From the IMG/VR virus record IMGVR_UViG_2936345690_000002: a stretch of DNA of 64,000 nucleotides; one strand, written 5' to 3'. The stretch comes from a virus. Its lineage: Duplodnaviria > Caudoviricetes. Of the stretch, positions 1 through 64,000 are shown piece after piece. The position numbers and the translations under genes are program-made. Every line of letters starts with the position of its first letter. The first letter of the stretch is position 1. The notes beneath the pieces are model-generated. The model was not told where the DNA came from. It made no database searches and was given only the letters and a program-made list of their open reading frames with translations.

Positions 1-145
1 CTGTGGTGGCAAACGCCGAAGAATCCTGCGTTGCGGCGGAGCCTACGGCCACGCGGCGGTTCTCGCCACCCCGTGCCACGGGGATCATGTCGCCGGTTTG
101 TACCGTTCCGCCGTTGGTCAGTGCGCTGATTTTGGTATCTGCCAT
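1..145 (-). CDS. N-terminus of a putative tail/neck fibre protein (runs off window)
   Basis: ATG at 145, directly after the stop at 146. Translates MADTKISALTNGGTVQTGDMIPVARGGENRRV, a phage fibre-like N-terminus. Not in the ORF track. Confidence 0.55.
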   Translation of the reverse strand, partial: MADTKISALTNGGTVQTGDMIPVARGGENRRVAVGSAATQDSSAFATT

Positions 146-634
146 TTACGCTTCCATGAGTAGGTTGTCTCCGGTTTCGAGGAGCAGGCCGTAGCCGCTC
201 TCAAGGAGGAATTCCGAGCCGGGGAATTCTTGCTCCTGCACAATCGCGCGGAACCGCATCACGCCGTGGTAGTACCTGTCCGGCTCCGCTTCGTCCCCCG
301 TATCGGGGAGGAGCTGGTTGAACTCGCAGGTGATCTCGGTGAGGTCGTAGCCTTCCACGTCCACCGCGTTTTCCTGCCGGTCTAATGCCCGGTAGACGCT
401 TTGCATCAGGTCGGCGCATGCCTTGTCGCCGCTGCCCTGCGTCCATGCATGGAGCGTCACGGTGATTTCCTGCCCGTCGCCGGTCTTGGTGCGGAACGGG
501 ATGGATGTTTTCTCGCCGATCACCACATACGGGAAGGCTGAAGCCTGCGGGATATGGCTGTAGACGTTCGATCCGATGCGGATAACCAATCGGTCGTAGA
601 TGCCCTTGTGCAGTGCGTTGACGGCAAGGGTCAT
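146..634 (-). CDS. Tail terminator / tail completion protein (DUF3168-like)
   Basis: FPYVVIG, LHAW and YHGVMRFRA motifs; follows gp10. Confidence 0.8.
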   Translation of the reverse strand: MTLAVNALHKGIYDRLVIRIGSNVYSHIPQASAFPYVVIGEKTSIPFRTKTGDGQEITVTLHAWTQGSGDKACADLMQSVYRALDRQENAVDVEGYDLTEITCEFNQLLPDTGDEAEPDRYYHGVMRFRAIVQEQEFPGSEFLLESGYGLLLETGDNLLMEA

Positions 635-1227
635 ATACCCGCACCATCGGTGTTCTGGCTGCCTTGTCCGATACCGTCATTCACGGCCTTGGCGATGCGT
701 TCCAGGATGAATGGCTTGCTCTTCTCCAATGCGGTAAACATGAACGGTCGCGGCGCGATCTTGTGCGTGCCGAACTCCAGCATCTTGGCATATTTCGCGG
801 AAGCGCTGACCGTGGCAATCAGTTCGTTGTTTTCCTTCTTCACGCTGGAATCGACCTGGATGCTGTTGGTCAGATTGCCGGTATCGGATGCCGGCGCTTC
901 GCCGGGCGCGGAGGCGGTGTGCGCCTTACTGCGCTTGACGAATCCGACCGACCTGCCGTTGATCGTGAACCACGCGGTGGGTTCTTCCCCATCCACGGCG
1001 GGGCGCATGTCGTAGGTCTTGCCGGACTTGCCGCCCTGCTGGATGGATTTCTTCGCCTCGGTCGCAACCCGTTGGGCGGCAACGTACAGGGCTTTCTTGA
1101 CCTGCTTATCGACGGCTTTCTGTACGAGTTCGGTCGCCTTGCGAAGGTTATCCAAGCCGTCAATTTCGACCTTGAATCCGAGGGATGAGCGGTCTGTCCC
1201 TGAAAACGTGCCTCCCTCAGTCGCCAT
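631..1227 (-). CDS. HK97 gp10-family morphogenesis protein
   Basis: ASAPGEAPASDTGNL, YAKMLEFGT and PRPFM motifs. Confidence 0.85.
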   Translation of the reverse strand: MATEGGTFSGTDRSSLGFKVEIDGLDNLRKATELVQKAVDKQVKKALYVAAQRVATEAKKSIQQGGKSGKTYDMRPAVDGEEPTAWFTINGRSVGFVKRSKAHTASAPGEAPASDTGNLTNSIQVDSSVKKENNELIATVSASAKYAKMLEFGTHKIAPRPFMFTALEKSKPFILERIAKAVNDGIGQGSQNTDGAGI

Positions 1228-1384
1228 GCTCTCGTACCAGTCCTTTGCGTTTCATTTCCGCCAGTCCGATATCCATGAGCGCGGCGATAACTCTTCCATT
1301 GTGCCGTTGCGGGGTTTTCTCCTTGCTGGGCTGGCTCTTCGCGGCAAGCCGCTCCAGTCCGTCGATCTTGACGCTGATTTCCAT
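1217..1384 (-). CDS. Small hypothetical protein (55 aa, MEISVKIDGLERL...)
   Basis: TAATG coupling to the upstream gene; N-terminus resembles that of gp10. Confidence 0.5.
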   Translation of the reverse strand: MEISVKIDGLERLAAKSQPSKEKTPQRHNGRVIAALMDIGLAEMKRKGLVREHGD

Positions 1385-2016
1385 TACGGGATGATCAGCT
1401 CGACCATGTGGCGCAGGAGCGTCATCTCCTCGCCCGCGCCCGCGCTCTGCAACTGGCCGGTGATGACCAGCGTGGTATCCGCCGAGGTGTCGATGGCTCC
1501 GGTGACGCCCGCCCCGGAGGACTGACCGTAACCGGCCGACCCGGCACTCATGCCGAACTGGCTGTTCTGCGCGTTGCGGTTGGTGATGATGGCCGTTGCC
1601 TGCTGGGAAATCAGCGTGGTGCTGCCCGCCTGCAGGAATACCGTGCCTGACGCCCCGCCCAGGCGAATGCGGAGGGTTTTGCTGTTCGCCGAGTTGTTGC
1701 CCGAGTTGGTGCAGGTGATCTGGAGGGAGCCGTTGGCGGTCATGAGGCCGCCGGGCACATTGACCGTCACGAAGGTGGTTTCGGTAGTCGTGCCGCTGAG
1801 CGTGGCCGAGGCGACGGCAGATGATGCGAGGAAGCAGCGACCGAGCGGCTTCCACACCGAGCCGTTGGAGATGAACAGGGTGCCCCCGCCGATATCGGAG
1901 AAGTAATAGATTTTGTCCGTGGCCGCCGATGCCGCAGGGCGGTTGGCGAAAGTCGTGGAGGTAATGGCCATGTCGTTCAATCCATAAGCGTTGAGGAGGG
2001 TGAGCAGGCGGCTCAT
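1384..2016 (-). CDS. Putative virion structural protein (210 aa)
   Basis: TGATG-coupled start at MSRLLTLL; Thr/Gly/Ala-rich beta-type composition; lies in the structural operon. Confidence 0.6.
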   Translation of the reverse strand: MSRLLTLLNAYGLNDMAITSTTFANRPAASAATDKIYYFSDIGGGTLFISNGSVWKPLGRCFLASSAVASATLSGTTTETTFVTVNVPGGLMTANGSLQITCTNSGNNSANSKTLRIRLGGASGTVFLQAGSTTLISQQATAIITNRNAQNSQFGMSAGSAGYGQSSGAGVTGAIDTSADTTLVITGQLQSAGAGEEMTLLRHMVELIIP

Positions 2017-4761: not shown

Positions 4762-4773
4762 CGAAGGCCCCGC

Positions 4774-7213: not shown

Positions 7214-8515
7214 TTAATTGCTGAGTTTCAGCAGCTTGTAAGCCTCAAAATTGATCACAGCCCCGCCGACACGTTTGGTCGTGTAGAACGAGATGTACGG
7301 CTTGTCCGTGAACGGATCGCGCAGCACGCGGATGCCCATGCGGTCGACGATCTGGTAGGCGCGCTTGAAGTCGCCGTAGGCCACGCTGAGCGAGGCGGAA
7401 GCCGCAACCGGCATGTCGTCGGCGAAGTAAATCTTCTTTCCGAGCACCATGGTTTCCAGCCCGGCGTTCTTGTCGAGCGTCAGGTTGAAATACAGTCGGT
7501 TTTCCGCGTCCTTCAGCTTCATGATCGCGCCCCAGGAGGAACGCTTCATCAGGAACACCGCGCCCGCCTGGTACGGCTCTTTCAGGCCGTTCTGCAGGGA
7601 GATCAGCCCGTCGATGGTGAACGCGCCGGCGGAACCGGAGACGATCTGTTCCACCTGCTGGGCGCCGATATCGGTGCCTGCGGTGTAGCTCAGGATGCCC
7701 TTGGGCTTCAGCACGCCGGTGCCGGAGATGAACGCGGTTGCCTCATCGCGGGCGAATTTGTCGACCACCTTGCTGCCGAGCCACGACTCCATGTCGATGC
7801 CCGCGTCGTCCAGGATCTTCTGGGTCGCCTTCGGGTTGGCGTAGAGCTCGTTGACCGGGATGGTCAGCTTGCCCAGCTGCGGGGTGCTGGTCGTGGAACG
7901 CGATCCGGTTTCGCCCACCCAGCCGGAGCCTGCCTCGTCGTTGTCGAGGATAACTTCATAGCTGTCGGTGCCGATGGTGATCACGCTCGCCAGCTGGCGC
8001 ATCGGCGAGGATTCCCACACCTTCGTCTGGATGATCCCGCCGAGTTCCGGCATCACCACGAAGCCGCCGCTCGGGTCGGCGTTGACCGACAGGGCTTTGA
8101 GTTCTGGGTTGGCATCGGCCTTCTGGGCGATGAAATCGGCGAAGTCTTCGCGGTTCGCGCTCTTGGTGCGGGTGAACTGGTTGAACAGCGTGTTGGCCTG
8201 GGCTTTGGCTTCCTTGGATTTGTCCTCGGAGGTGCCGGGCGCGGGCAGGCGGTTGAACGCCGTTTTCAGGTCGCTCAGTTCCTTATCGTGCTCGACCTGC
8301 TTGGCTTCCAGCGCCTTGTTCTGGTCTTCCAGGGCTTTGGTGCGAGCCGCCTCTTTCTGGCTCTGCTCCAGCGCTTTGCCGATGTCGGTCTGGATGGCAT
8401 TGAACTTCGCTTCGTCGAACGCGTCGAGCTTGCCGAGCTTCGGTGCCAGGTCGGTTTTGAAGGCTTCGAACGCGTTCAGCGCATTCTTGACTTCGGTGGT
8501 TACATCATTGGTCAT
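7214..8515 (-). CDS. HK97-family major capsid protein
   Basis: GGFVVMPE, SPMRQLA, WVGE, ELYANPKATQKILDD, GDFKRAYQIVDR, KRVGG. Confidence 0.95.
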   Translation of the reverse strand: MTNDVTTEVKNALNAFEAFKTDLAPKLGKLDAFDEAKFNAIQTDIGKALEQSQKEAARTKALEDQNKALEAKQVEHDKELSDLKTAFNRLPAPGTSEDKSKEAKAQANTLFNQFTRTKSANREDFADFIAQKADANPELKALSVNADPSGGFVVMPELGGIIQTKVWESSPMRQLASVITIGTDSYEVILDNDEAGSGWVGETGSRSTTSTPQLGKLTIPVNELYANPKATQKILDDAGIDMESWLGSKVVDKFARDEATAFISGTGVLKPKGILSYTAGTDIGAQQVEQIVSGSAGAFTIDGLISLQNGLKEPYQAGAVFLMKRSSWGAIMKLKDAENRLYFNLTLDKNAGLETMVLGKKIYFADDMPVAASASLSVAYGDFKRAYQIVDRMGIRVLRDPFTDKPYISFYTTKRVGGAVINFEAYKLLKLSN

Positions 8516-8523: not shown

Positions 8524-9162
8524 TTACAGGGTGAGTTGTTGGGTAAAGCGGCCGAATAGCTCGGCCAGTTCCTTGTGCTCTTCCTCCTCAGCCTCCCGCT
8601 CAGGGTTCAGCGCCTTGAAGCCGCGCAGCGCGATGGTGGTCGCGTCGTCGCGGCTGTATCCTCCTGCCTCCCGCAGGAAATCCTCGAACTGCCGGATGGT
8701 TTCCGGCTTGCTCTTCACTCGTGTGATGTTCGCTTTCTCGTTGGCCGGGAAGGTCACCAGCGACACTTCCCACAGCTCCAGGTCGAGCAGCTTGCGGGTG
8801 CCGTTGGCCTGGTCGACTTCGTATTTCTTGGTCGAATAGCCGATGGACAGGCCCTTCATCGCCTTCATCTTCGCCAGCTGGTAGGCTTCCTCGCCGAGCG
8901 GCGTGTTCGCGAACGTGCCTTCCAGGTAGAGCCCGCGCGTTCGCTCCTCGTAGACGTCCCAGACGCCGGGGATCATGTCGCTGCGGTGCTGCCAGAGCAT
9001 GGCCGGCTGGCGGTCTTTCATGCTGCGCAGGAATGCACCCGGCATGACGATGTCGCCGTAGCTGTCGGTGTTGCCGAACACGGAGCCGTAGCCGCATACT
9101 TTCCGGCTGCTGTCGTCGGCCTTCAGCTCGATCAGCTCGAAGCTTTTGAATTCACGTTCCAT
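8524..9162 (-). CDS. HK97 prohead protease
   Basis: GYGSVFG, MLWQH, GLSIGY, LWEVSLVTFPAN. Confidence 0.95.
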   Translation of the reverse strand: MEREFKSFELIELKADDSSRKVCGYGSVFGNTDSYGDIVMPGAFLRSMKDRQPAMLWQHRSDMIPGVWDVYEERTRGLYLEGTFANTPLGEEAYQLAKMKAMKGLSIGYSTKKYEVDQANGTRKLLDLELWEVSLVTFPANEKANITRVKSKPETIRQFEDFLREAGGYSRDDATTIALRGFKALNPEREAEEEEHKELAELFGRFTQQLTL

Positions 9163-9187
9163 GGATAGTCCCCTGTCTGTGGGCAAT

Positions 9188-9215: not shown

Positions 9216-9539
9216 TTAGAAAGTGGCTATCGGCTCCTCAGCGGACTGGGATTTACGCTCCCGTGCTTTTAGAATCGATTCGATCACTTCTGGATGCGAT
9301 GCGCCGAACGCGATATCGATCTCACCATCCGCGCTTTTGCTGAAATTGCATACGACGGGGTGGACAAGGCCTTCCGGCTCCTGCTCCGGTAGCGTCTCGT
9401 GGTCCGTCACCTGCACGGTAATCGTGTTCTGGATCAGGTCTTCCCACGTGATAGCAACCTTTTCTACCTTACATTTCCCGCCAAACACTGCTTCAAGCAG
9501 TGGTACGGAAATGCGTAGAATTCCAGCCCTCTTTGTCAT
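9216..9539 (-). CDS. Hypothetical protein (moron-like insertion)
   Basis: ATGA-coupled ORF, visibly more AT-rich than its neighbours. Confidence 0.55.
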   Translation of the reverse strand: MTKRAGILRISVPLLEAVFGGKCKVEKVAITWEDLIQNTITVQVTDHETLPEQEPEGLVHPVVCNFSKSADGEIDIAFGASHPEVIESILKARERKSQSAEEPIATF

Positions 9540-10279
9540 TCCGCCTCACTGTAAATAATTGAGCACCTGCACGCTATCGTGTTACCCGCACTCCCAGCCG
9601 GGTCGCCCGGCCGGTCCATCAGCTCGCCGCCGACGTTGAATTTCTCGTCCAGCGGGATCGCCGGGTGATTCGCCATCGCAAGGTGCTCCGGGCGCGTGCG
9701 GCTATCCGAGGTCGGCAGCCAGGCTTTGAGCATCTTCATGTCCAGCTGCTGCTCGGCATCCCGCACGCTCTCGATGCTGCCGTAGGTGGCGGCGGCGTGC
9801 GTCTCGGTGCGTGCGATCACGCTGGCCCGGCGCGGCGTCAGGCTGGTCAGCTTGCGGATATTCGAGGCGATGGCCTGCGTGCCCAGCCCCTCGCCGATCC
9901 CGGCTTCGATGGCAGCGGCCACGGTATCGCGGTCGGTGTCGGTGATCATGCGTGCTTTTCGCAGCGCTTCCCGGCGAACCCAGGAGAACATCAGGGCTTC
10001 CAGCGGCGTGAGTGCCGATTTCTTGCCCTTGGCGATGCCGGAGAGCGCCAGCTTGCCAAAATTCGCGGTCGTTTCCGTGTAATGGGCGAGTAGCGTGTTG
10101 AAGACCCGCGTGCGGTGCTTCTCGTTCAGGTGGGCGGGCACGGTGCCGGTGTCGGCCACGGATCTGGCGACCTGGCGGAGGTAGGAATTGAGCGCGGTAC
10201 CGGCCTTCAGGCGGAGCTTGTGTTCGTAGAACGTCATCCCGCGCTGGAAGGCGACGTGCTGACGGCGGCGGGAGAGCAT
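9536..10279 (-). CDS. Minor head protein (Mu gpF / SPP1 gp7-like)
   Basis: RASVIARTET, KAW...DSRTRPEH, PGDP, IACRC. Confidence 0.85.
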   Translation of the reverse strand: MLSRRRQHVAFQRGMTFYEHKLRLKAGTALNSYLRQVARSVADTGTVPAHLNEKHRTRVFNTLLAHYTETTANFGKLALSGIAKGKKSALTPLEALMFSWVRREALRKARMITDTDRDTVAAAIEAGIGEGLGTQAIASNIRKLTSLTPRRASVIARTETHAAATYGSIESVRDAEQQLDMKMLKAWLPTSDSRTRPEHLAMANHPAIPLDEKFNVGGELMDRPGDPAGSAGNTIACRCSIIYSEAE

Positions 10280-10504: not shown

Positions 10505-10690
10505 TCAGGCAGGCAGCAGGAAATACGGCTGCCAGAACCACGGGCCGAACCAGCAGTTCAGCCGCACCAGCTGCACGAATTCATCCTGGTAGACGATGTC
10601 GAGTGCGGAACCGGCCTGGGCGTTCGAGCCCGGGAACTGGATGCGGATGACCTTGTCGTCCTCTTCGATAATCTCGACCTCAAGCGTCAT
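10505..10690 (-). CDS. Small hypothetical protein (61 aa, MTLEVEII...)
   Basis: ATG overlapping the portal end, with GAGG upstream. Confidence 0.45.
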   Translation of the reverse strand: MTLEVEIIEEDDKVIRIQFPGSNAQAGSALDIVYQDEFVQLVRLNCWFGPWFWQPYFLLPA

Positions 10691-12068
10691 CCTCGTCCTC
10701 TTCTTCTTCCGCCGGTTTAGGCTTCTTGGGCTTCTTCGGTTTCGGCTCGGGCTCAGGTTCCGGCGACGGCGCATCTTCCTCGCCATCGGCATCGCTGCCC
10801 GGCTCGGCCAGATCGGGGATTTCGCCGGCCAGTTCCAGCGGGATGTTGGTGGACGGCACCAGCACCACGTCGCCGCCGTCCACGTCATCCAGGCCCATCG
10901 CCCGGCGTTTCTCGTTGACGGTCATGTAGGTGGCAGCGTTGATCCGGTCACCCTTTTCCTTGCGGCGCGGCTCCAGCGCGGGAATCGCCTCTTCGTCGTA
11001 CCAGATCACCAAATCGTCGCCGAACAGCGGGGCCAGCCAGTTGTTCAGCTCCTCGAGATCGCTCTCCAGGAAGGGGATCACGGTGTCGGAGTAATAGGCG
11101 ACCTTGGCTTCACCGTAATTAGAATATGTGCTTTCGCCCGGGATGTTGACCAGCTGCGGCGGGGTGTGGAACACGCCGGCGATGAAGCGGGCGGTAACCA
11201 GCATCGTCTCCCGGTGGTCCATGTCCTTCGGGCTGAGCGAAATCGGCGTCCATTTCATGCCGCCTTCGAGCACCATGGGCTTGCCGGCGTTGTGCTTGCC
11301 GGAGAACCGGTCGTCGAGCATGCGCTTGAGGCTGGAGCGCTGGTCATCGGTCAGGGATACCGGCTTGCCTTCGCGGTCGACAATCTCCAGCGCGCCGGAG
11401 GGGCGAGCTTCGTTATCGAGCAGCGCCTTGTTCCAGGCTTGCCCGGAATTGAACGTGTCCACGCCGAACGCGGCGGCCACCAGCGGCGGCAGGCCGATCG
11501 ACGGGTTGAGCGGGTTGACGGTCTTCAGGTGCAGGATGGCGCACTTGCCGGTGATCCGGTCGACCGGGAAGCGGATCGGCTTGGCCTGGCCGGGGCGGTA
11601 GTCGTACCAGGCGGGAAGCGCGCTCTGGGGCTGCGCCTGCACCGTCACCGACTGCGTCGGCAGGAGCCATAATTCTTTCGGCGGGTTGCCCTTGCGGCTG
11701 AACGGGTCGATGCCCTCGCCGTGGACGTAGGCATTCCCGCCGATCAGGCGGTAGGTGGCCATCGCCTCGCGGAAGCTCCGGCCGCCCGCCATCGGGTTGG
11801 GGCGTTCCAGCAGTTTCAGCAGCGGATGGTTCTCCAGCTTCACCAGCTTGCCGCCCTGCTTGCGGTAGACGTGCAGGTCCACCGAGGCGGACGCCCTGGC
11901 GAGCTTGGTCACGCAGGCGTAGACGATCGGGTTCTGCTCGTAGCCGTCCTTGGCCAGCAGGTCGAAGCGGCGTTCCAGCCAGCGGGCCGCGCCGATGCCG
12001 TAAAGGAACGTGGCGTTCTTGACGGCGAATTGATCGACCGCTTTGGAGCGGCGGGTGAACCAGGCCAC
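10680..12068 (-). CDS. HK97-family portal protein
   Basis: NPIVYACV, HPLLKLLERPNP, GNAY, NAGKPMVLEGG, TYSNY, TVNEKR. Confidence 0.95.
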   Translation of the reverse strand: MAWFTRRSKAVDQFAVKNATFLYGIGAARWLERRFDLLAKDGYEQNPIVYACVTKLARASASVDLHVYRKQGGKLVKLENHPLLKLLERPNPMAGGRSFREAMATYRLIGGNAYVHGEGIDPFSRKGNPPKELWLLPTQSVTVQAQPQSALPAWYDYRPGQAKPIRFPVDRITGKCAILHLKTVNPLNPSIGLPPLVAAAFGVDTFNSGQAWNKALLDNEARPSGALEIVDREGKPVSLTDDQRSSLKRMLDDRFSGKHNAGKPMVLEGGMKWTPISLSPKDMDHRETMLVTARFIAGVFHTPPQLVNIPGESTYSNYGEAKVAYYSDTVIPFLESDLEELNNWLAPLFGDDLVIWYDEEAIPALEPRRKEKGDRINAATYMTVNEKRRAMGLDDVDGGDVVLVPSTNIPLELAGEIPDLAEPGSDADGEEDAPSPEPEPEPKPKKPKKPKPAEEEEDEDDA

Positions 12069-12071: not shown

Positions 12072-13484
12072 CTACCAGATGCGGATGTCGGGGGTGACCG
12101 ACCGGGTGCGCATCCAGTTCAGGAACTGCGTTGTGCTGTCCACCTGGTCGTCGTGCGGAGCGTTCGGAAAAGTCATCAGTTCCATCTCGTAATCGGTTAG
12201 CCAGGCGGCGTGCGTGGGCAGGCTCACCTTGCCCGCTTCCACGAGGGCGGAGACGGCGCTGGCACGGGTTTCTTTGTCTTTCTCCGGGTTGATCGCCAGC
12301 AACGGCAATTGCGTGCTATGTCGGAGATCCTGCAAAACCTGCTGGCCGGAGGATTTGTCCTCGATCAACACGGCGTTGGCGCCCCATGTTTCGGCGTGCT
12401 CGGCCACGCGGGCTTTGAGCTGAGGGTATTCCAGGCGTTTGACCAGCACATGCAGGAGGTCGTAGCCGTCCGGGCGTATGCCCCATGTGGTGCAGCAGCT
12501 CGGGTCATTCAATTCCGCCGCCTTGCTCGCGGTATCCCAGCTCTGAACGATCTGCAGGTAGCTGTCCTGCGGCCGCTCGTGGCGTTTGAACCAGCCCGCC
12601 TTGAAGATGCCGCCTTCCGCCGGAGCCGGGCGTTGCTGGTACTGGCCGGCAAAGGCGTAGGAGCCCATGATATTCTTCTGTGCCTCGACCGCCGCCGCAC
12701 TCTCGCGCTCGGGATGGAGCAGATCGCCTTCCTCGCGGACCACTTTGACGCGGCCGAAATCGATGACGGTGCGCGTCTCGGCAATCGCCGGGATGCAGAG
12801 GTTTTCCCATCCGCCCTTGGCCAGCAGGTGACCGGAGAGGTCATCCGCGTGAAGTCGCTGCATCACCACGACAATGACGCCGTTTTCTTTGTCGTCGAGG
12901 CGGGTGCAAAACCCCTGGTCGAACCACGTATTAGCTGTTTCCCGGTCAGCGTCCGAAAGGGCCTGCGCCGCATTCAGCGGGTCATCGACGATCAGGAAGT
13001 TGCCGCCTTCGCCGATGGCCGAGCCGCCGACCGAAGTGGCGAAGCGATGGCCGCGAGCGGTGGTGACGAATTTGCGTTTCTCGTTCTGGTCGCCGGTCAG
13101 GTGAACGCCGGGAAACACCCGCTTGTACCACTCCGACTGGAGGATCAGGCGGGTATCCACGCTGTGCTTGAGCGACAGCACCTCGGCGTAGGAAGCGGCC
13201 AGGATGCGTTCGGATGGGTTATGCCCCAGCAGCCATGCCGGCCATGCCACGGTGACCGAGATGGATTTCATGTAGCGCGGCGGTATGTTGATGATCAGCC
13301 GCTTGATCTCGCGACGGGTGCAGGCTTCGAGATACTCCGCGATCAGGTCGATGTGCCAGTTGTGCTTGTAACTGGCGCCCGGATCGACCGTGGCGAAGGC
13401 TTTGCGGGTAAACGCCGCCAGGCGGGTGCGCAGGAGGGCGTCGAACGCCTTCTGGTCACTTACCTTGTTTTGCGTACTCGTCAA
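12072..13484 (-). CDS. terL: Terminase large subunit
   Basis: INIPPRYMKS Walker A, IVDDP Walker B, QYQQRP, SWDTA, IEDKSSG, HDDQVD. Confidence 0.95.
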   Translation of the reverse strand: MTSTQNKVSDQKAFDALLRTRLAAFTRKAFATVDPGASYKHNWHIDLIAEYLEACTRREIKRLIINIPPRYMKSISVTVAWPAWLLGHNPSERILAASYAEVLSLKHSVDTRLILQSEWYKRVFPGVHLTGDQNEKRKFVTTARGHRFATSVGGSAIGEGGNFLIVDDPLNAAQALSDADRETANTWFDQGFCTRLDDKENGVIVVVMQRLHADDLSGHLLAKGGWENLCIPAIAETRTVIDFGRVKVVREEGDLLHPERESAAAVEAQKNIMGSYAFAGQYQQRPAPAEGGIFKAGWFKRHERPQDSYLQIVQSWDTASKAAELNDPSCCTTWGIRPDGYDLLHVLVKRLEYPQLKARVAEHAETWGANAVLIEDKSSGQQVLQDLRHSTQLPLLAINPEKDKETRASAVSALVEAGKVSLPTHAAWLTDYEMELMTFPNAPHDDQVDSTTQFLNWMRTRSVTPDIRIW

Positions 13485-13965
13485 GCAGAGCCTTATCCTG
13501 CTCCGCCAGCTGTACCCCGTTCACGCTCACGTTCACATTGGTATCGCCCTTGGAGCCAAATCGCTTCGGTGCCAGTTTCTCGGCCACCTTGATGCGCGTA
13601 TCCACCCGCAGCTTGTCGCGTTGTGCGGTGGCGGCAAGGAACTCCTGCCGCGCCTGGCTATCCTGCGGTGAAACCCCATCGTCGTTGCTGCCGATATGCT
13701 CGCGCTCGGCGGGCTCGCCGTCTGCGATATCCACGGCCTCGTCCATGTAGGATTCCGCCTGCCAGTCGCGCGCACAGGCGTACTGGTCGCAAAACGCCTT
13801 GTATGTTTCCTCGCCAGCTGCACCTCTGGTAAGCCAACGGATCACGGTAGCTTTGTCCGGCATGTGCTCGTCGGAGCAGATTCGACGCAGCGATTCGCCG
13901 TTCGCCAACCGCTCACAGATGTCCGTGGCGAGCTTGGCGGAATATCGTGTCGGCCTTCCGGTCAT
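13456..13965 (-). CDS. terS: Terminase small subunit (Sf6-like)
   Basis: GRPTRY..ICERLANGESLRRIC..MP, KLRVDTR..KLAPKRFG; upstream of terL. Confidence 0.85.
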   Translation of the reverse strand: MTGRPTRYSAKLATDICERLANGESLRRICSDEHMPDKATVIRWLTRGAAGEETYKAFCDQYACARDWQAESYMDEAVDIADGEPAEREHIGSNDDGVSPQDSQARQEFLAATAQRDKLRVDTRIKVAEKLAPKRFGSKGDTNVNVSVNGVQLAEQDKALLDEYAKQGK

Positions 13966-19368: not shown

Positions 19369-19370
19369 CG

Positions 19371-20141: not shown

Positions 20142-20144
20142 GTA

Positions 20145-45832: not shown

Positions 45833-45956
45833 AAATGGCACGGGGGGAATCCGAGCCTATTCTCACCGTGCCGTGGGCGGCATGCAACCGTCCTTTCGGA
45901 TCTCGCGTAAGCCATTTGTGGAAAACAAGATGGGACTGCGGCGGCACGGCCCGCGG

Positions 45957-48766: not shown

Positions 48767-49588
48767 TTAGTCCACCAGCTCCGCCATCCGTGCGGTGAGC
48801 GTCCACAACGCCTTGTTCAGGCGAATATCACGATCCACGGCCTTCACCGGCCTGGTCGTGGTGCGGCGGCCGGTCGGCGTCGTGCCGCTGATGCCGCCCT
48901 TCAACGCGCCTTCCTGCACGGTATTGAAGGTAGCCCAGAGGGACCGGCTGCCGTCCGGTGCGGGCTGATCCTCGCTGCGGCGGGGGGTGAGCAGCTGGTC
49001 GGGCGTGATGTTCGGTGCATCGAGCAGGACATGGGCGGCCTCCGCGAATGCCGTCTGTGCCGGTGCCGGGAGAGCGAGCTGCTTCCAGGCGTCGATCTGC
49101 TGCAGCACCTTCGGCGTGTCCTCGACGATACGGAACGTCGCGTCGATGATCCGCTGGCTGAAATCCGCCCCGCCCGCATGCTTGACGCTGATCGAGCCGA
49201 AATCGCTGCTGGCCACGACAAGGCCATTCGAGCAGACCAAACGAAAGATGCCGGAGGCGAAGCGGTACGCCGCCGTGCCATCATGGCTGTTTGATAGCAC
49301 AAGCTCCGGCAACTCGGCCCCGACCGTCTGCGGCGTCAGGTAGTCGGAATGGCGGAACCGGAGCATGTGCCGGGTGTAGGCCTGCTTCCCCTCGATCCTG
49401 CTGCGGCTCTGTGCCGCCTTGACCGGGAAGAAGCCGCGGTCGCGGAGGATATCCACGACTTCGATGGTGGGGACGTGCCGGTAGCGGCCGGACATGCGGT
49501 GCCACGGTTCGGAGGCGAACACGCTGGGGCAGGTGCGGCGGAGGGTGGCGGTGTCGAGCACGGCGGGCAGGTTCTGGGTGGCGGACAT
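48767..49588 (-). CDS. DUF932 family protein
   Basis: S.RY.HVPTIEV, HMLRFR, NSHDGT, FRLVCSNG, LWATFNTVQE. Confidence 0.9.
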   Translation of the reverse strand: MSATQNLPAVLDTATLRRTCPSVFASEPWHRMSGRYRHVPTIEVVDILRDRGFFPVKAAQSRSRIEGKQAYTRHMLRFRHSDYLTPQTVGAELPELVLSNSHDGTAAYRFASGIFRLVCSNGLVVASSDFGSISVKHAGGADFSQRIIDATFRIVEDTPKVLQQIDAWKQLALPAPAQTAFAEAAHVLLDAPNITPDQLLTPRRSEDQPAPDGSRSLWATFNTVQEGALKGGISGTTPTGRRTTTRPVKAVDRDIRLNKALWTLTARMAELVD

Positions 49589-50279: not shown

Positions 50280-51760
50280 CTGTACTTTCCGGGGGAATGT
50301 ATATGTCATGCGGCCAGACTGAGCAGCCTTTCGGCCGTGGCCTGAATTTCCGCCTCGGTAGCCCCCGGGCGTAGAGTCGCACGAATCTCCTCGCCCAGCA
50401 GATCGCGACGCCAGGCCCGGCGCTTGTCCGCATGGCTCGGGCGGCGCAGCGTCGAGTCCCACGGCGAGGTCGAGCGGTCCACCAGATCCTCCGCCTCACG
50501 GCCCCAGGCCCACGCCTCGGTCATGGTGTAGGTCCACAGGCAGATGTGGAAGGCCCCGACGTTCGCCCGGATGAACCGCACCTGCTGCTGCCCGGCCCCC
50601 ACGACCTGCTTGCACTCGCGAAATGCGATCTCCAGGCCGAACCGGTCGGCCACGGTCGTCAGGATGTCGGCGACGCTCGCCTCGGTGTCGGTGCAGAAGT
50701 AGGCCCGCCAGCCGGTCGGCTCGTCCACCAGCACCACCCGGATCGCGCCGCCGGCCGGACGCCAGGTCGCCGGGAACGTCTTGTACTTCTTGACCGCGGC
50801 AACCCCGTACAGGCTGATTGTCTCGGTGGACCAGCCGCGTCGCTGACCGGCCCGCTTGGCCAGGTCGATCACATCCGGGCCGTAGGTGCGGGGACGGCCA
50901 GGCTTGCCCGCAGGCCGGGGGCCGGGCAGTGACCGCAGGGCCGCGTCCTTTCGGAGCCGGCTGACGACCGTCATGCCCAGCTCCATCGCCGGCTTGAGGA
51001 ACTCCCTGCTGGCATAGGCCCCGTCGGCCACCACCCAGATCGGCAACCCCAGGGGCCCCAGCCAGGGCTTGGCCCAACGGAGCAACTCGACGGCCAGCTC
51101 CAGCTTGGTGCGGAACTCCGGCCGGTGTTTCGGGTCGATTCCCGGCAGGTCCACCTTCCGGACGTAGAGCCGGGCCAGCAGCGGCAGGGCAACGACGCCC
51201 CACGCCGGGTGGGCCACGAGCAGGGCCAACACGACGAAGACGTGGCCGTAGACGTAGGGCGAGCCGGCCGGGCCGGGTGTCGGGTTGTGATGCACGCCGG
51301 CCCCCTGGACGTGCGGGCCGTACCGCTTCGTCGGGGTGTCGTCCAGGGCGAGGGTCAGCCGCGTGGCGCCCTTGACCAGGGGCCGGACCACTTCGGTCAG
51401 GAGGCGTCGGGCGATGCGATCGGCCCGCTTGCCGGCGGCGGCGACGGCGGTATAGCAGGGGCGGAAGTGGTCGCTGAGCTTGGCGGCCCGGATCCAGGTC
51501 GTGACGGTCCGGCGGCCCCGGGCGAGGACGGCGCCGAGGAACAGCAGGGCGAGCCGGGGTGCGGAGCGGCGGTCGAGGGCGGCGGCGAGCCACGGGAACC
51601 ACTGGCACGGGGCGGGCGGTAGAGGCGAGGATGTCATCGGGGGCCGGCTCCGCTCGGGGTCTCTGGCTGGTCCGGTAACCGCCATCGTCCCGGCCGGACC
51701 GGCCCTCATCTACCCTCTGCCCCGGATCGCGCTACGTACATGAAGTCCCGGAAAGTGCAG
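50280..51760 (-). mobile_element. Insertion sequence (IS701-like DDE), 1481 bp
   Basis: Terminal IR CTGTACTTTCCGGG / CCCGGAAAGTGCAG; 7-bp target duplication TATTGTC at 50273 and 51761. Confidence 0.9.
50306..51709 (-). CDS. DDE transposase (IS701-like)
   Basis: ALDDT, VADGAY, SRLRKD, R..LE..FRE.K; start may be the downstream ATG (MTSSP). Confidence 0.9.
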   Translation of the reverse strand: MRAGPAGTMAVTGPARDPERSRPPMTSSPLPPAPCQWFPWLAAALDRRSAPRLALLFLGAVLARGRRTVTTWIRAAKLSDHFRPCYTAVAAAGKRADRIARRLLTEVVRPLVKGATRLTLALDDTPTKRYGPHVQGAGVHHNPTPGPAGSPYVYGHVFVVLALLVAHPAWGVVALPLLARLYVRKVDLPGIDPKHRPEFRTKLELAVELLRWAKPWLGPLGLPIWVVADGAYASREFLKPAMELGMTVVSRLRKDAALRSLPGPRPAGKPGRPRTYGPDVIDLAKRAGQRRGWSTETISLYGVAAVKKYKTFPATWRPAGGAIRVVLVDEPTGWRAYFCTDTEASVADILTTVADRFGLEIAFRECKQVVGAGQQQVRFIRANVGAFHICLWTYTMTEAWAWGREAEDLVDRSTSPWDSTLRRPSHADKRRAWRRDLLGEEIRATLRPGATEAEIQATAERLLSLAA

Positions 51761-55040: not shown

Positions 55041-55823
55041 ATGCTCAAGGAACTCGACCCCGCCGATTGCTTCCCGCCCCACGACAACCGCCCCATCACC
55101 GATGAGGATGTGGCCGACCTGGTGGAGGACTACCAGCGAAACGGCCAGCTCCAGCCCGGCATCGTCTGCCCCCACCCGGACTTGCCCGGCAAATGGCTCG
55201 TCATCGCGGGCGGGCGACGTGGGCATGCCTGTCGGATTGCCCGCATCCTATTCCGTGCCGAGGTGCGCGACACGATTCCTTCGCAGGCGGAAATCATCGA
55301 AATCCGCGTCGGCGAGAACTCCAAGCGCAAGAATCTCGACGCCTTCCAGCTCTGCAACGACATCACCACCTACAAGAAGGAGAAGCGATTCACCACCTGG
55401 GCGGAGGCTGGGAAGGCGCTCGGCATCCCGGCCAGCACGCTCAGCTCGATCACCTGTGTCCGGCGCATCCCGCCGGAACTCCGCCCGAAGACGGAACGGC
55501 TCTGCGGCACGGTGGTCAGAACCATCGCCCGGATGCCGACGCGGGCAGACATGGAGGAGCTGATCGCCAAGGCGTTCGATGAGAACGACCAGCCCATCCC
55601 GAAAGACCGGGTGGAGCTGCTGGCCAAGCAGATGAAAGAGGGCAATAAATCGGGCCGGAAGCCCCGCGGGTTCACCGTCAAGGATGGGGGCCATGAGGCC
55701 GTCATCAAGCCCAAGCCCGGCGTTTCGACGGAAGACATCGCCAAGTGGCTGGAAGGGCTGGCCGCGAAGCTGAAGGCCAACAAGCACCTGCCGCCGGACG
55801 GGTTGAGATTCCTGTTTCCGTGA
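55041..55823 (+). CDS. parB: ParB/Spo0J-family protein
   Basis: GQLQPG, IAGGRR, EN.KR, HTH WAEAGKALGIPASTLS. Confidence 0.8.
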   Translation: MLKELDPADCFPPHDNRPITDEDVADLVEDYQRNGQLQPGIVCPHPDLPGKWLVIAGGRRGHACRIARILFRAEVRDTIPSQAEIIEIRVGENSKRKNLDAFQLCNDITTYKKEKRFTTWAEAGKALGIPASTLSSITCVRRIPPELRPKTERLCGTVVRTIARMPTRADMEELIAKAFDENDQPIPKDRVELLAKQMKEGNKSGRKPRGFTVKDGGHEAVIKPKPGVSTEDIAKWLEGLAAKLKANKHLPPDGLRFLFP

Positions 55824-56388: not shown

Positions 56389-57876
56389 GTGAGCCAAACC
56401 GACATCCTGGTCTACGCCGGCTGCGCCAGCCTAATCGTGACCGGCCTCATCATCCGCATTGGGGAGCGCCGCAAACAGAAGCAACTACCGGCCAGGGCGT
56501 CCCCGTCAGGCCCGGAAGGCTTCACCATCTGCGGCATCCACCTCGGCTGGCCGGACTCCGGCATCGTGGTCACCGGCTCCAGCGGCTACGGCAAGACGTT
56601 TTTCGCCCGGTCCATCGAAGCGCAGGCGATCAACCAGTGGCTTCCCTGCCTCTTTGCCTGCCCAAAACCTACAGACGCCAACGAGGTTGATGAGCTATGT
56701 CGCCAGCTCAACGCGTCAGACCGATTCGTGCGATTGAAGCCCGGATCGCCTTACCGCATCAACCTGCTCAAGTACCTGACCGAGATGCCGGGCGGCTCTT
56801 CGCTGCTGGCCGCGCAGTTCCTGGCGCGGCTGAACGACATCGCCAGCCGGGCGGAAGGGACCGGCAACCACGGCGAAGCGTTCTGGATGACGATGTTCGA
56901 GACCGCGCTGGTCAACGCCATCGAGCTGTGCATCCTGGCCACCGGCGAAGCCAGCATGGAGCTGGTGAAGGATGCGCTGATCAGCAGCCCCGGCACCCCG
57001 GAAGACGCGCTGCCGGCCAAGCTGTTCGGCGGCGACCCGGAGAATTTCACTATCTGCGCCAAGATGATCCTGCTGGCGCGGGAAAACCAGACGCCCGAAA
57101 ACCAGAGGAGGGTCAAGCGCGCCACCGAATTCTTCCTCAACGAATTCTCATCCCTTGGCTACAAAGCCCGCGGCGCCATCATCTCGATGGTGAACGCGAT
57201 CCTGGGCAGGTTCCTGCTGGAGCCGTTTTACTCGGCGCTCTGCGAGGAATCGACGCTCACGCCCGAAATGATCGAAGCGGGCAGACTCGTTGTCGCGCTC
57301 GATTACGATCTGCTCACCTACGAAACGCCCGGCCGAATGTTCCAGCTCGCCTGGATCATGCTCTACCAGGGCTACTGCCTGCGAAGGCCTGCGGCGAACG
57401 CGCCGCGCAGTCTCATCGTCAGGGACGAATACGCGTATTTCAGCCACCCGGGCTACGACGCAATCGTGGCCGCGGTGTCGCGATCGCAACGCGCGCTACA
57501 CCTGGACCTTTTCCAGGATTTCGACCTCATGGAGCAAACCTACGGGGGAGGCCCCAAGGCCAAGAACGAGGCGCTCAGCTCCTGGTCGAACCACGGCGTC
57601 AAGCTGATGTTTCACCAGAACAACCCGGATTCGGCGGAAGTCCAGAGCCGCCTGACCGGCGACGTCAAGGAGATCATGCTGTCCGGCGGCTCCAACGGCC
57701 GTGCCAACCGCGAATCCGGCGATTTGCGCGACGGCTGGCTGGGCGTGAACCAGTCGATGCACTGGTCAGAGCAATACGCCCGCGCAATTCGCCCCGAGTT
57801 CTATTCAACGCTTCCGGTCGGTGTAGCCGTGCTCCACGCCCACGGCGAATTCCAGGTTCTCGACATGAGGGAGTGA
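56389..57876 (+). CDS. Type IV coupling protein-like ATPase (TraD/VirD4-like)
   Basis: N-terminal TM, VTGSSGYGKT, IVRDEY, SRSQ...FQD, FHQN. Confidence 0.75.
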   Translation: MSQTDILVYAGCASLIVTGLIIRIGERRKQKQLPARASPSGPEGFTICGIHLGWPDSGIVVTGSSGYGKTFFARSIEAQAINQWLPCLFACPKPTDANEVDELCRQLNASDRFVRLKPGSPYRINLLKYLTEMPGGSSLLAAQFLARLNDIASRAEGTGNHGEAFWMTMFETALVNAIELCILATGEASMELVKDALISSPGTPEDALPAKLFGGDPENFTICAKMILLARENQTPENQRRVKRATEFFLNEFSSLGYKARGAIISMVNAILGRFLLEPFYSALCEESTLTPEMIEAGRLVVALDYDLLTYETPGRMFQLAWIMLYQGYCLRRPAANAPRSLIVRDEYAYFSHPGYDAIVAAVSRSQRALHLDLFQDFDLMEQTYGGGPKAKNEALSSWSNHGVKLMFHQNNPDSAEVQSRLTGDVKEIMLSGGSNGRANRESGDLRDGWLGVNQSMHWSEQYARAIRPEFYSTLPVGVAVLHAHGEFQVLDMRE

Positions 57877-57879: not shown

Positions 57880-58446
57880 ATGCCGCAGCAAGAGCAACAA
57901 CAATCGAACGACCCCTTCCACGGCATCCGGCAGACCGGCAACTTCATCCTCTTCGCCGTCGGCCTGCTGGCCGGGCCGTATCGGCTCCTGTTCTACCGGC
58001 CGGGCAGCATGGGGCCGCGATCCATCGGCTTCCACACCATCGTCGGCGTCATGATCGGCTATCCGCTGGTCGTGCAGCTGACCGGGCCGCCGATGACGCA
58101 GGAAGGGTTCCAGGCGTTCGCCTGGGGAAACATGGCGCTCTACGGGCTGCTGGCGCTGCACTTCCTGGCGGCGATGACCAGCAAGGAGCGGCGCCACAGC
58201 GAGGAATGCGGCCAACCGCTGGCCAAGGACGACACGAAGGAATTCCTGCTGGCCGGCGTGGCAGGGCTCTGCCTGCTGCCGCTCTGCCAGGGCATGGCCT
58301 GTTTCGTCGGGCTGGGGTGGCTGGCCAGCAAGATCCAGCTCGGCCTCTTCAAGGCGAAGGTCGATCGCGAGGCGCAGGCCGCCTACGACAGCATGCTGCA
58401 GGCCCAGATGCAGCAACGTGCGATGGAACGACTGCGGAGGTGGTGA
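57880..58446 (+). CDS. Multi-pass membrane protein
   Basis: Several hydrophobic segments. Confidence 0.65.
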   Translation: MPQQEQQQSNDPFHGIRQTGNFILFAVGLLAGPYRLLFYRPGSMGPRSIGFHTIVGVMIGYPLVVQLTGPPMTQEGFQAFAWGNMALYGLLALHFLAAMTSKERRHSEECGQPLAKDDTKEFLLAGVAGLCLLPLCQGMACFVGLGWLASKIQLGLFKAKVDREAQAAYDSMLQAQMQQRAMERLRRW

Positions 58447-62157: not shown

Positions 62158-62588
62158 CGGACAAGAAACCTTCTCCACCCGGCCAGCGTGTGGACTGGCG
62201 TGGCGCGGATCTGCGTGGCGTCAGCCTGGCCGGCGTATCGCTCGAAAACGCCGACCTGCGGGCCGCGGATCTGAGCAACGCCAACCTGAGCAGCATCAAC
62301 CTCCGTTATGCCGACCTTCGCGGCGCGACGCTCAATGGCGCCAACCTGCAGAACGCCAATCTCTACGGCGCGAAGATGCAGGGCGTTGAGGCGTTTCAGG
62401 CGGACCTGCGCGGAGCCAACCTCCAGATGGCCAACCTGGGCGGCGCGTACCTGGAAGGCGCCATGATGCCCGCGCCCGCCGCGAAGCTCGGGCTGAAGTC
62501 GCCCGATCCGCTGGAGACCGCCCAACGGAAGGCGAAGGAAGCCTTGGCAGAGAAGGGAAAACCCAAGGGGCTGGAGTTCGGCGGATGA
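62154..62588 (+). CDS. Pentapeptide repeat protein
   Basis: A(D/N)Lxx repeats. Confidence 0.9.
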   Translation: MTDKKPSPPGQRVDWRGADLRGVSLAGVSLENADLRAADLSNANLSSINLRYADLRGATLNGANLQNANLYGAKMQGVEAFQADLRGANLQMANLGGAYLEGAMMPAPAAKLGLKSPDPLETAQRKAKEALAEKGKPKGLEFGG

Positions 62589-62782
62589 AAACACACATTC
62601 GGCACCGCGCCCATCGGCGGGTGAAACACCCCGTCCTCGTCACCGCCGGCATCTGGCTGGCGGTGATCCCCGCCCTCTGCTTCATCGCCGGGACGCTCCG
62701 CCCCATCCCCCTGCTGACGTTTGGGGCGATCAGCGCCATTACCGTCATGATCTGGATGGAAGTCAACGAATGGAGGGGGTGA
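62585..62782 (+). CDS. Small two-TM protein
   Basis: Two hydrophobic helices. Confidence 0.5.
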   Translation: MKTHIRHRAHRRVKHPVLVTAGIWLAVIPALCFIAGTLRPIPLLTFGAISAITVMIWMEVNEWRG

Positions 62783-62786
62783 GCCT

Positions 62787-62969
62787 ATGGACGTAAAGGA
62801 GGCGGCGCGGCGGCTCGAAATCAGCCCGTCGCTCGCCTACAAGCTGGTCCAGGAGGGGCGCTTGCCATGCGTCCGCATCGGCCAGAAGGGCAGGCGCGGC
62901 AAGATCGTGCTCACGGAGGAGCATCTGAAGCAATTCATGAAGGAGCTGGAAGAGGCGCGGGGGCACTAG
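62787..62969 (+). CDS. Excisionase-like HTH protein
   Basis: VKEAARRLEIS...YKLV..GRLP..RIG; convergent with the integrase. Confidence 0.85.
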   Translation: MDVKEAARRLEISPSLAYKLVQEGRLPCVRIGQKGRRGKIVLTEEHLKQFMKELEEARGH

Positions 62970-64000
62970 CCCTCGCGTTTCTCATTTCCGTCCAGCGCCT
63001 CGCGCATCGCTTTGTGGTCGTGGTGGAGATAGGTTTTCATCAACTGCTTCAGGTCGGTGTGCCCGAGCTGGATGGCCACGAGCGCCGGATTGAGGCCCTT
63101 CTCATTGATGGCCGTTGACGCCCATGCGTGGCGGTGCGAGTACATCCGGTCGCCGTAGGTGATGCCAAGCTTGTCGCACAGGCGGCGCATCCGAACCCGG
63201 AGCGCATCGGCCTGCCACGGCTTGCCGAACTTGTTCGAGAAAATGTGCCCCGCCTTGCGGTCGCCGATGACCCGCTTCAGCAGCTCGATCATGGCGGTCG
63301 AGAGGAACACCGGGCGCTCGTCGATGCCGGTCTTCGCCTTCGTCTTGTTGGGCACCATCAGCACGCCCTTGTCGAAGTCGCACTTTTCGATCAGCGCTTC
63401 CCGCGCCTCGATCGGTCTGCACCCGGTTCCGGCGAGGAAGTGGAGCACGTCGCGGAATTCCGGCGCGGCGGCGGCGGCCAGCCGCTCCGCGTCCTCCGGC
63501 GACATGACATCCTCCCGCCTGCGTGCGAGCGGCATCGTCACCTTGCCCTTGATCGGGTTGGCGGCGATCCAGTCCTGCCGGGCGCAGTAATTCAAGCACG
63601 CATTGACCGTGATGATGAACTGCCGCACGGAGTTGGGTGCCCACGGCTTGCCCTTGAGGAAGTCGGTGACGTGGTGGGCGCGGAGCCTGGACACTTTCGG
63701 ATCGCCGGTCGCCCTGGCGAAAGATTCGAGGTAGTCTTTGGCGCGGCGGATGGAGTTGGGGCGGCAATCCTGCAACGATTCCAGATATTTGGACGTGCAG
63801 AAGGAAAGCTTGCGGTCTTCCGGCTCCGCCTGGGCCTGCATCGCGGCGAGGTATTTCTTCTGGATCGCGGGCGGCGGTTCCTTCGGCTTGACCTTGGGGG
63901 GAGAGGTGAAGCGTTCGTCGCGCCCGAGGTTGACCTGCTTGCCGCCGGGAAGCTCGACGAACCAGCTCAGGCGGTCGGATCGGAACCACGGCTTGTTCAT
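62966..64000 (-). CDS. Tyrosine recombinase/integrase
   Basis: TGCRP.E, K, YSHRH, LGH, Y catalytic residues; KPWFR..R.SW N-terminus. Confidence 0.9.
   Translation of the reverse strand: MNKPWFRSDRLSWFVELPGGKQVNLGRDERFTSPPKVKPKEPPPAIQKKYLAAMQAQAEPEDRKLSFCTSKYLESLQDCRPNSIRRAKDYLESFARATGDPKVSRLRAHHVTDFLKGKPWAPNSVRQFIITVNACLNYCARQDWIAANPIKGKVTMPLARRREDVMSPEDAERLAAAAAPEFRDVLHFLAGTGCRPIEAREALIEKCDFDKGVLMVPNKTKAKTGIDERPVFLSTAMIELLKRVIGDRKAGHIFSNKFGKPWQADALRVRMRRLCDKLGITYGDRMYSHRHAWASTAINEKGLNPALVAIQLGHTDLKQLMKTYLHHDHKAMREALDGNEKREG

Follow-up and report, generated by a model that had tools for sequence, protein, structure and literature searches.

The DNA considered here, hereafter the window, is a stretch of 64,000 nucleotides from the IMG/VR virus record IMGVR_UViG_2936345690_000002 (Duplodnaviria; Caudoviricetes), and its host genome is that of a planctomycete (9.4 Mb, 71% GC). 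The window carries the head, packaging and early genes of an HK97-type tailed phage together with a MOBF relaxase, a nic-like site, a membrane ATPase that resembles the type IV coupling proteins (T4CPs) of conjugation systems, ParB-like genes and a tyrosine integrase. Phages do not usually pair their head and tail genes with a nicking enzyme of the conjugation type and the ATPase that partners it. Open reading frames (ORFs) were called with guidance from third-position GC (GC3), and families were assigned by scans of Pfam, NCBIfam and PHROGs. The features on which the argument turns are as follows (window coordinates; negative positions lie to the left of window base 1).

7214-8515 (-): HK97-fold major capsid protein (PF05065, 1.7e-73)
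8524-9186 (-): prohead serine protease, S78 (PF04586, 1.3e-29)
10680-12068 (-): portal protein (PF04860, 1.4e-72)
12072-13484 (-): large terminase subunit, TerL (PF17289, 1.7e-17)
13456-13965 (-): small terminase subunit, TerS, of the Sf6 type (PF20901, 2.4e-33)
30578-30589 (+): nic-like core GCGTAGGGTGTA, a candidate oriT cleavage region with the cut predicted after 30588 by analogy with F
30663-32309 (+): MOBF/TrwC-family relaxase, 548 aa (PF08751, 138.3 bits against a cut-off of 25, 5e-40; NCBIfam NF041492 MobF, 133.6 bits against a cut-off of 100)
56389-57876 (+): T4CP-like ATPase of the VirD4/TrwB fold, with a single N-terminal membrane helix (residues 4-25) and the Walker A motif GSSGYGKT
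62966-64000 (-): tyrosine integrase (PF00589, 4e-18), with the attR core just past the window at +64115..64133

The window is the right 64 kb, or right two-thirds, of a larger island. The GC content of the island is ~62%, and the dip starts ~34 kb to the left of window base 1 and ends ~2 kb beyond the window's right edge (~-34 kb to +66 kb). Of the direct repeats that pair the two GC transitions, the longest measures 19 bp, with copies at window -34236 and +64115 and none elsewhere in the genome; the element between the repeats measures ~98.4 kb, its left end lying ~34 kb further left than window base 1. Both 19-bp copies are in frame within the sequence that codes for the C-terminus of a class I/II aminotransferase (PF00155, 2e-60). 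At the left copy, codons belonging to the element finish the aminotransferase gene, and at the right copy lies the original gene end, now displaced; such an arrangement is typical of elements that have integrated into the 3' end of a gene. Between the repeats there is only one PF00589 integrase and no match to the serine recombinases (PF00239), and a third copy of the att core was not found anywhere in the genome. An integrase with flanking att sites, as in temperate tailed phages, is thus present. The first-pass annotation had reported a single integrase with no internal att junction and had suggested extending the contig in search of attL and attR; the former holds for the whole 98.4-kb island, and the latter are the 19-bp pair. 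Elsewhere in the host genome (G000), 13 loci (12 on C1, one on C2) give identical serine-recombinase-domain scores in a 752-aa frame, and these look like a multi-copy mobile element unrelated to the island.

The relaxase, placed at 30.5 kb by the first-pass annotation, passes the cut-offs of both PF08751 and the NCBIfam MobF model, and scores 111 bits, under the cut-off of 145.5, with TIGR02686. Against the solved TrwC and TraI relaxase domains in the PDB it gives values of 7e-22 to 1e-17 (TrwC, 7e-22). The first tyrosine pair (Y16/Y17), the catalytic Asp and the three metal-binding histidines are retained; the latter (H140, H151 and H153) are invariant in a four-sequence alignment and align to those of TrwC in the PDB and of longer relaxases. 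The second tyrosine pair is lost in the short relaxases (the window, Tundrisphaera, P0003 and P0004) and kept in the long ones (G002, G100, G206 and G300), and the 548-aa protein has no match to AAA_30 or UvrD_C that would denote an active helicase domain. Its residues 300-548 may structurally resemble the helicase-associated part of MobF relaxases (TM-score 0.52-0.56), which is a lead only, and the G002 and G100 relatives possess a C-terminal SF1B helicase domain, being full-length TrwC relaxase-helicases. The helicase encoded at 18220-19368 was considered as a split-off relaxase helicase and rejected, as it has 24% identity over 210 residues to the TrwC helicase and its best PDB relatives are RecD2 and Dda. 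Close relatives of the 548-aa form number only three among 5.8 billion proteins (40-45% identity, 521-547 aa), one of them in Tundrisphaera sp. TA3.

The nic-like core GCGTAGGGTGTA lies 85 nt before the relaxase start codon and occurs only once in the 9.4-Mb genome. The same 12-mer is found 95 nt upstream of the Tundrisphaera relaxase, and a metagenome contig of 90,480 bp (L013) carries the related GCGTGATGTCT at the equivalent place upstream of its relaxase; the motif is thus kept within non-coding DNA that is otherwise diverged and aligns poorly. Its first 11 bases match the F oriT stretch given in PMC3074121 at 10 of 11 positions. The earlier proposal of a nic-like site is supported by this conserved, genome-unique core motif; no significant hairpin of the IR2 type was found beside it. 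A cut of the (+) strand in the manner of F and R388 would place the relaxase-proximal arm at the front of any transfer. The predicted transferred strand would be the template for 12 of the 16 ORFs in 32.8-41.7 kb; this orientation has been described for the anti-defence, methyltransferase and single-stranded DNA-binding protein genes of plasmid leading regions (Samuel et al. 2024, PMC11541004).

The T4CP-like protein is a borderline match when taken by itself (PF02534, 20.2 bits against a cut-off of 20.1 with no single stretch passing; PF12696, 20.2 bits against a cut-off of 22), and it has no NCBIfam match and no PDB sequence match. An exhaustive search among 1.84 billion representatives recovered 1008 relatives at E ≤1e-3. 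Of 66 that were aligned, 48 match TraG-D_C, 26 TrwB_AAD_bind and 15 T4SS-DNA_transf (PF02534). An AlphaFold2 model built from the relatives' alignment has a mean pLDDT of 92.2, and the best PDB folds recovered with it by Foldseek are those of Cag-beta (8dol) and TrwB (1e9s) (E 3e-11, TM-score 0.58-0.68), with the VirB4 and HerA folds ranking lower. Across the relatives, the Walker residues G66, K69 and E347 are invariant and D346 is nearly so (≥90%). Given the family matches of its relatives, the modelled fold, the N-terminal helix and the intact Walker motifs, the product of 56389-57876 is accepted as T4CP-like, and the coupling ATPase named by the first-pass annotation is supported. Taken together, the mobilisation (MOB) module looks functional, intact and conserved.

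Conservation of this arrangement was followed in a sample of 301 genomes of the host's class, which are related genomes whose counts are not independent trials. TerL relatives at E ≤1e-80 occur in nine of the 301, and all five other genomes with a TerL of at least 71% identity carry a TrwC gene 14.6-16.9 kb from it on the opposite strand, the distance in the window being 17.2 kb. Among the best 20 matches to the capsid family (at least 213 bits), 17 have a TrwC gene 15.6-36.6 kb from the capsid gene, always on the opposite strand and always on the terminase side; the 17 loci (window included) are spread over nine genomes, six genera and two families. The co-location of TerL and TrwC that had been proposed as a check on the first-pass annotation was thus encountered repeatedly. 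The three capsid matches lacking TrwC are in draft assemblies (G178, 760 contigs; G220, 180; G042, 190), and in G042 the capsid gene is ~550 bases from one contig end. TrwC is not near the other capsid lineages (~35 other genomes, the listed rows checked by eye), and hence the relaxase link is specific to this one.

Beyond TrwC, on the same strand, a T4CP-type gene is present in 15 of the 17 loci. Nine of these are strong matches to a 480-aa type, two are canonical T4CPs verified with Pfam, and four are weak, unconfirmed matches in frames of 578-640 aa; of the two loci without a T4CP call, one is on a contig that ends too early, and the other (G060) does not fit. The two partners vary together: short relaxases occur with the 480-aa T4CP type in 8 of 8 cases, and long relaxases with a canonical-like type in 6 of 7 and with the 480-aa type in one. 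Related elements include full-length TrwC relaxase-helicases accompanied by canonical PF02534 T4CPs. When the ORFs of six elements were clustered, only the relaxase, TerL, portal and capsid were found in all six, the protease and a giant helicase being found in five; the window's TerL is 71-80% identical to those of the five related elements.

One relative is the element of Tundrisphaera sp. TA3, which has the same order and relative orientation as the window of integrase, T4CP-like protein (38% identity), DUF932 protein, ParB-like protein (65%), relaxase (45%), TerL (71%) with portal, protease and capsid, and giant helicase (79%). All of its modules lie within 54-bp direct repeats, 111 kb apart, that correspond to the 3' end of a tRNA-Leu(CAA), with an integrase just inside. 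A second member of the lineage, with a different integrase and target, is hence also bounded as one unit. On the metagenome contig L013 the order of helicase, SLT protein, relaxase, downstream ORF and ParB-like protein is kept; a TerL (P0168, 80% identity to that of the window) is linked to it solely by sharing the cluster statistics of the L013 relaxase P0004 (9 contigs, longest 90480). Among IMG/VR proviruses with a TerL of at least 76% identity, both carry TrwC (2/2), and none of four records with a TerL of 44-55%, including a complete 42-kb phage genome, does so. Protein identities among members range from 25 to 80% across two families, and these values show long co-inheritance of the modules, despite the relatedness of the genomes sampled.

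That two independent elements, a prophage and a remnant of an integrative mobilisable element (IME) or integrative conjugative element (ICE), have come to lie side by side or nested has to be considered, as phage-ICE tandems and nested forms are described as widespread, with 612 curated cases (PMC13651849), and the gene content here falls into modules, with a concentration of plasmid-like genes between 30 and 62 kb. The explanation is nevertheless very unlikely: it is opposed by the lack of a second integrase, a serine recombinase or a third att core, by the recurrence of the same order in 17 loci of nine genomes at 25-80% protein identity, by the relative at a different site (tRNA-Leu) whose att repeats enclose all modules, and by the other capsid lineages having no TrwC nearby in the listed rows of ~35 genomes of the class, as checked by eye. 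An assembly chimera at ~30.5 kb can scarcely be entertained, as the arrangement of TerL and relaxase recurs in assemblies made independently of this one, complete chromosomes and a metagenome contig among them, and the GC content does not change at the junction. A single att pair and a single integrase around the island, together with a gene order that recurs elsewhere and a relative with its own att pair, form a strong argument against both. It is thus with high confidence that the window is assigned to a single element, as the first-pass annotation had supposed, and that this element is placed in a conserved, phage-like lineage bearing a relaxase and a T4CP.

A few observations on these genomes may be recorded separately. 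One of the genomes G123 and G300 carries four elements of the lineage and the other five; the four of G123 combine very short, TrwC-only relaxases (348-363-aa frame) with the 480-aa T4CP type. In Tundrisphaera, another integrase gene directly past the right att of the 111-kb element (G061/G139 C1:541983-543000, L012) suggests a further element in tandem at that tRNA-Leu site. The host of the window has one TrwC match only, and a second HK97-type capsid gene (G000:C1:2399858-2400706, 186 bits) within a prophage-like locus that is without TrwC.

The remaining phage genes of the element are listed below.

-6021..-4303 and -11285..-8235 (left of the window): tape measure and tail protein (PF20155 and PF13550)
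146-634 (-): tail completion protein, gp17-like (PF11367, 9e-18)
631-1227 (-): HK97 gp10-like protein (PF04883, 2.5e-12)
9536-10279 (-): Mu-F-like head morphogenesis protein (PF04233, 2.5e-16)
16681-17499 (-): protein whose N-terminal part matches phage replication-initiator families (phrog_12556, 2e-42, residues 1-118 only)
18220-19368 (+): RecD2/Dda-like SF1B helicase (family and PDB matches)
19371-20141 (+): exonuclease (family match)
20145-21059 (+): YqaJ nuclease (family match)
20897-22333 (+): phrog_3657 protein (PHROGs)
22509-23147 (+): GapR-like protein (family match)
23144-24052 (+): AAA ATPase (family match)
27159-27962 (+): SLT lytic transglycosylase (PF01464, 2.2e-11) with one N-terminal membrane helix by hydropathy
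30052-30534 (+): HNH endonuclease (PF01844, 1.5e-6), directly upstream of the nic-like site

All called genes in 1-17.5 kb are on the (-) strand and comprise the end of a tail module and a complete-looking HK97-type head and packaging module. With TerL, TerS, portal, protease, capsid, connectors, tape measure and tail proteins, the element has the structural gene set of an HK97-type member of the Caudoviricetes, and the head, packaging, replication and recombination genes named by the first-pass annotation are borne out by Pfam matches for the former (capsid, protease, portal, TerL, TerS and tail/connector genes) and by the helicase, exonuclease, YqaJ, GapR and AAA matches in 18220-24052 for the latter. 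Phages with a TerS of the Sf6 type are headful packagers. The (+) operon begins at ~18 kb and the relaxase gene is its last member. In its later part it also encodes a DnaJ-like protein. The SLT protein, of which a homologue (38% identity) lies upstream of the relaxase on L013, could have either an endolysin-like or a VirB1-like role; it is the only lysis-type protein recognised, and no holin or spanin could be named among the window proteins scanned.

To the left of the window, a 2095-aa protein (-22872..-16585; L004:456-6743, minus) combines an SNF2-type helicase part at its C-terminus with weak matches of methyltransferase and DnaB-like type, and may resemble DarB of P1. This giant helicase (70-79% identical in four other elements) and TerL (71-80%) are the two proteins that the lineage conserves best. 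Further left, an accessory block (-32.6 to -23.4 kb, L001) encodes UDG-family, GNAT, Cas4-like PD-(D/E)XK nuclease and ThyX proteins and a type-ISP-like methyltransferase of 1026 aa, the last with coupler and specificity domains and no nuclease or helicase match.

Between the relaxase and the integrase, the following were recognised in addition to the T4CP-like gene.

32245-32793 (+): conserved ORF overlapping the relaxase 3' end, with a 31%-identical homologue right after the relaxase on L013 and no family match
38031-39947 (-): large ParB-like protein, 638 aa (PF02195, PF17762; phrog_7783, 5e-82 over the whole length)
40631-41389 (-): possible orphan N6/N4 DNA methyltransferase (PF01555, 6.7e-5, under the cut-off)
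48767-49588 (-): DUF932 protein (PF06067, 2.8e-38), with homologues in the same arm of G002 (59%) and Tundrisphaera (46%)
50306-51709 (-): DDE transposase of an insertion sequence (IS) inside the element (PF13546, PF01609)
55041-55823 (+): small ParB/RepB-like protein, upstream of the T4CP-like gene (TIGR00180, 2.4e-12, under the cut-off; phrog_4715)
57880-58446: membrane protein with 2-3 transmembrane segments, right after the T4CP-like gene

Most ORFs of 32-37 kb and 52-62 kb remained unnamed by PHROGs, Pfam and NCBIfam, and an atlas search returned nothing for the ORF at 36268-36879. The large ParB-like protein has a 57%-identical counterpart on L013. Of the ParB/parS system that had been read from the sequence, the two ParB-like genes are confirmed and parS is not: a search for repeated palindromic sites found none, and none of the proteins scanned was identified as a ParA. 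The sole recurring motif, a direct repeat of ~20 bp that occurs three times (35761, 35970 and 36266; spacing 209 and 296 bp) and ends in ATG, looks like the start regions of small paralogous genes rather than parS. Two cargo-type genes are also present. An LCIB-type beta-carbonic anhydrase (45008-45841 (-), PF18599, 1e-43) has a 58%-identical counterpart at the equivalent place in the G100 element, beside its T4CP and integrase. A 553-aa protein with a C-terminal cytidine/dCMP deaminase domain (42912-44573 (+); also MafB19-like), encoded in the window's lowest-GC stretch (~55%), may be a defence or counter-defence gene.

The IS, a relaxase without helicase domain and second tyrosine pair, and the want of any confidently nameable lysis cassette would all accord with a decaying or domesticated element that is inherited as a unit, its virion module, MOB module or both being dead, and that is transferred by neither route. 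Against this, the head, packaging and tail genes tested are all full-length open frames with strong family matches, the relaxase catalytic residues and T4CP Walker motifs are intact, the island is still 9 GC points under the genome with att repeats exact over 19 bp, and the presence of four elements in one genome and five in another points to recent activity of the lineage. The IS-bearing 1.8-kb stretch is single-copy in the genome. Decay is accordingly regarded as quite unlikely.

The interpretation advanced here is that the element belongs to a temperate, HK97-type, phage-like planctomycete lineage in which the relaxase, nic site and membrane T4CP are core components beside TerL, portal and capsid, and that it also moves by conjugation-type transfer; the case for and against this reading as a whole is evenly balanced. 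The tyrosine integrase would insert the element into the 3' end of the aminotransferase gene and later excise it as a circle, which the phage genes would replicate, package by headful and release in particles. In addition, the relaxase would nick the (+) strand at ~30588/30589 and remain bound to the 5' end, and the T4CP would pass the DNA with its bound relaxase to a mating channel provided in trans. The arm next to the relaxase (ParB-like protein, methyltransferase, DUF932 protein, T4CP and integrase) would be first into the recipient, and the same nick might also prime rolling-circle replication. We thus infer that two routes of transfer, as proposed by the first-pass annotation, may serve one element.

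Several results weigh against this interpretation, foremost among them those of the search for a mating pore. The VirB4 family PF03135 has zero matches in the host, in the six element-bearing genomes and in the 301 class genomes; PF12846 and TIGR00929 gave only sub-threshold P-loop matches, none over the cut-off, and no mating-pair-formation family was found among the ORFs of the element given to Pfam, many of which, large and small, are without any match. With no VirB4 detected in the host or the class genomes, the conjugative route is left without a visible helper. The window relaxase lacks the second catalytic tyrosine pair and an active helicase domain, no IR2-type hairpin accompanies the nic-like motif and no fold there is better than that of shuffled sequence, and a search upstream of the long relaxases (G002, G100, G206 and G300) did not recover the motif. 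Relaxase homologues are nearly absent from deposited phage genomes, with one weak match in 50,697 records, and hence no isolated phage vouches for the combination; scans of IMG/VR with the relaxase and with its four-sequence alignment found no relative. The IS inside the element and the relatedness of the genomes counted belong on the same side. TrwC itself (PF08751, E ≤1e-10) is present in 105 of the 301 class genomes, often beside TrwB-like T4CPs, and either the class uses a mating channel that is missed by the standard models or its pairs of relaxase and T4CP function in the absence of such a channel. In a genome of the same genus (G001:C76), a TrwC locus of the plasmid type has an adjoining TrwB-like T4CP and nothing recognised as VirB4-like or phage-like.

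The same evidence bears on a second explanation of the single element, in which the relaxase and T4CP are purely phage-internal and there is no conjugation: the relaxase would serve as an HUH nickase, starting rolling-circle replication at the nic-like site and supplying the concatemers required for headful packaging, and the T4CP would have another membrane-linked role. The A proteins of P2 and phiX174 are nickases that start rolling-circle replication in this manner. Such a role would explain the core status of the relaxase, which occurs throughout the lineage just as TerL, portal and capsid do, and its fixed place at the end of the early operon, always 15-17 kb from TerL. The failure to detect VirB4 in the host and the 301 class genomes, the Sf6-type TerS, and the separate Dda/RecD2-like helicase in the same operon in both the window and L013 would also be accounted for, as would the loss of the second tyrosine pair from the short relaxases; Y2 relaxases are described as having two catalytic tyrosine sites, with the second pair used for termination in the recipient (PMC4176350). 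However, a membrane T4CP kept in 15 of 17 elements and co-varying with the type of relaxase is left unexplained, as are the full-length, conjugative-type TrwC-helicases and canonical T4CPs of the relatives, and the element has a replication-initiator-like gene of its own (16681-17499). A phage-internal function is considered less likely than not.

A more speculative suggestion, which we hold to be unlikely, is that the relaxase and T4CP are part of the phage's own DNA handling and delivery rather than a borrowed module awaiting a helper, such that a strand capped by the relaxase, or a product of rolling-circle replication, would be linked at the membrane either with particle assembly or with some unrecognised channel other than a type IV secretion system (T4SS). 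If true, the lineage would be a relaxase-dependent phage or the virion-borne successor of a conjugative element, and not a phage plus an IME.

Mobile elements are usually sorted by their vehicle, virion or mating pore, and here a MOBF relaxase and coupling protein are conserved in the manner of terminase, portal and capsid. Should both routes operate, one element could choose between lysis-borne and contact-borne spread, and the modelling of host range and gene flow would change; should the relaxase serve the phage, this would be a novel means of replication or processing among tailed phages. The lineage also offers a handle on the class-wide pattern of TrwC (105/301) versus VirB4 (0/301). Automatic classifiers of mobile genetic elements would call these elements provirus or IME according to the marker used. 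No description of a relaxase-bearing lineage of tailed prophages was found in the literature searched; the catalogue in data S2 of PMC13651849, which was outside that search, could contain members.

Among known systems, the element resembles IMEs: an integrase and att sites accompany a relaxase, a coupling protein and an oriT-like site, and mating-pore genes were not recognised in it. IMEs are described as relying on a helper for the mating pore (PMC11389934; PMC5357655). Unlike them, the element is ~98 kb with a full set of head, packaging and tail genes, its relaxase is core to a phage lineage, and no helper T4SS was detected in the host or class. It differs from an ICE in that a mating-pair-formation T4SS of its own was not found (no VirB4-type match in the genome). 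The relaxase domain is homologous to those of R388 TrwC and F TraI, the T4CP has a TrwB-like fold and the nic core is F-like (10/11), whereas the window relaxase is without a helicase domain and has one tyrosine pair, no IR2 hairpin or T4SS was found, and the genes are within a prophage. As in phage-plasmids (P1, N15 and SSU5 types), phage structural genes are mixed with plasmid-type genes such as ParB; those are episomal, however, and the present element is integrated in the chromosome by a tyrosine integrase, with no ParA, parS or plasmid replicon identified. Phage-ICE tandems likewise unite phage and conjugation functions in one excisable unit, but are described as a separate phage and complete ICE, in tandem or nested, "rather than a hybrid element" (Huang et al., Sci Adv 2026, PMC13651849), in contrast to the one integrase, one att pair, no detected T4SS and conserved, interleaved architecture found here. 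Finally, Phi1207.3 of Streptococcus pyogenes, termed a "conjugative prophage", is reported to move between cells in matings (PMC4260502); unlike the element of the window, it is 52 kb in length and belongs to another phylum.

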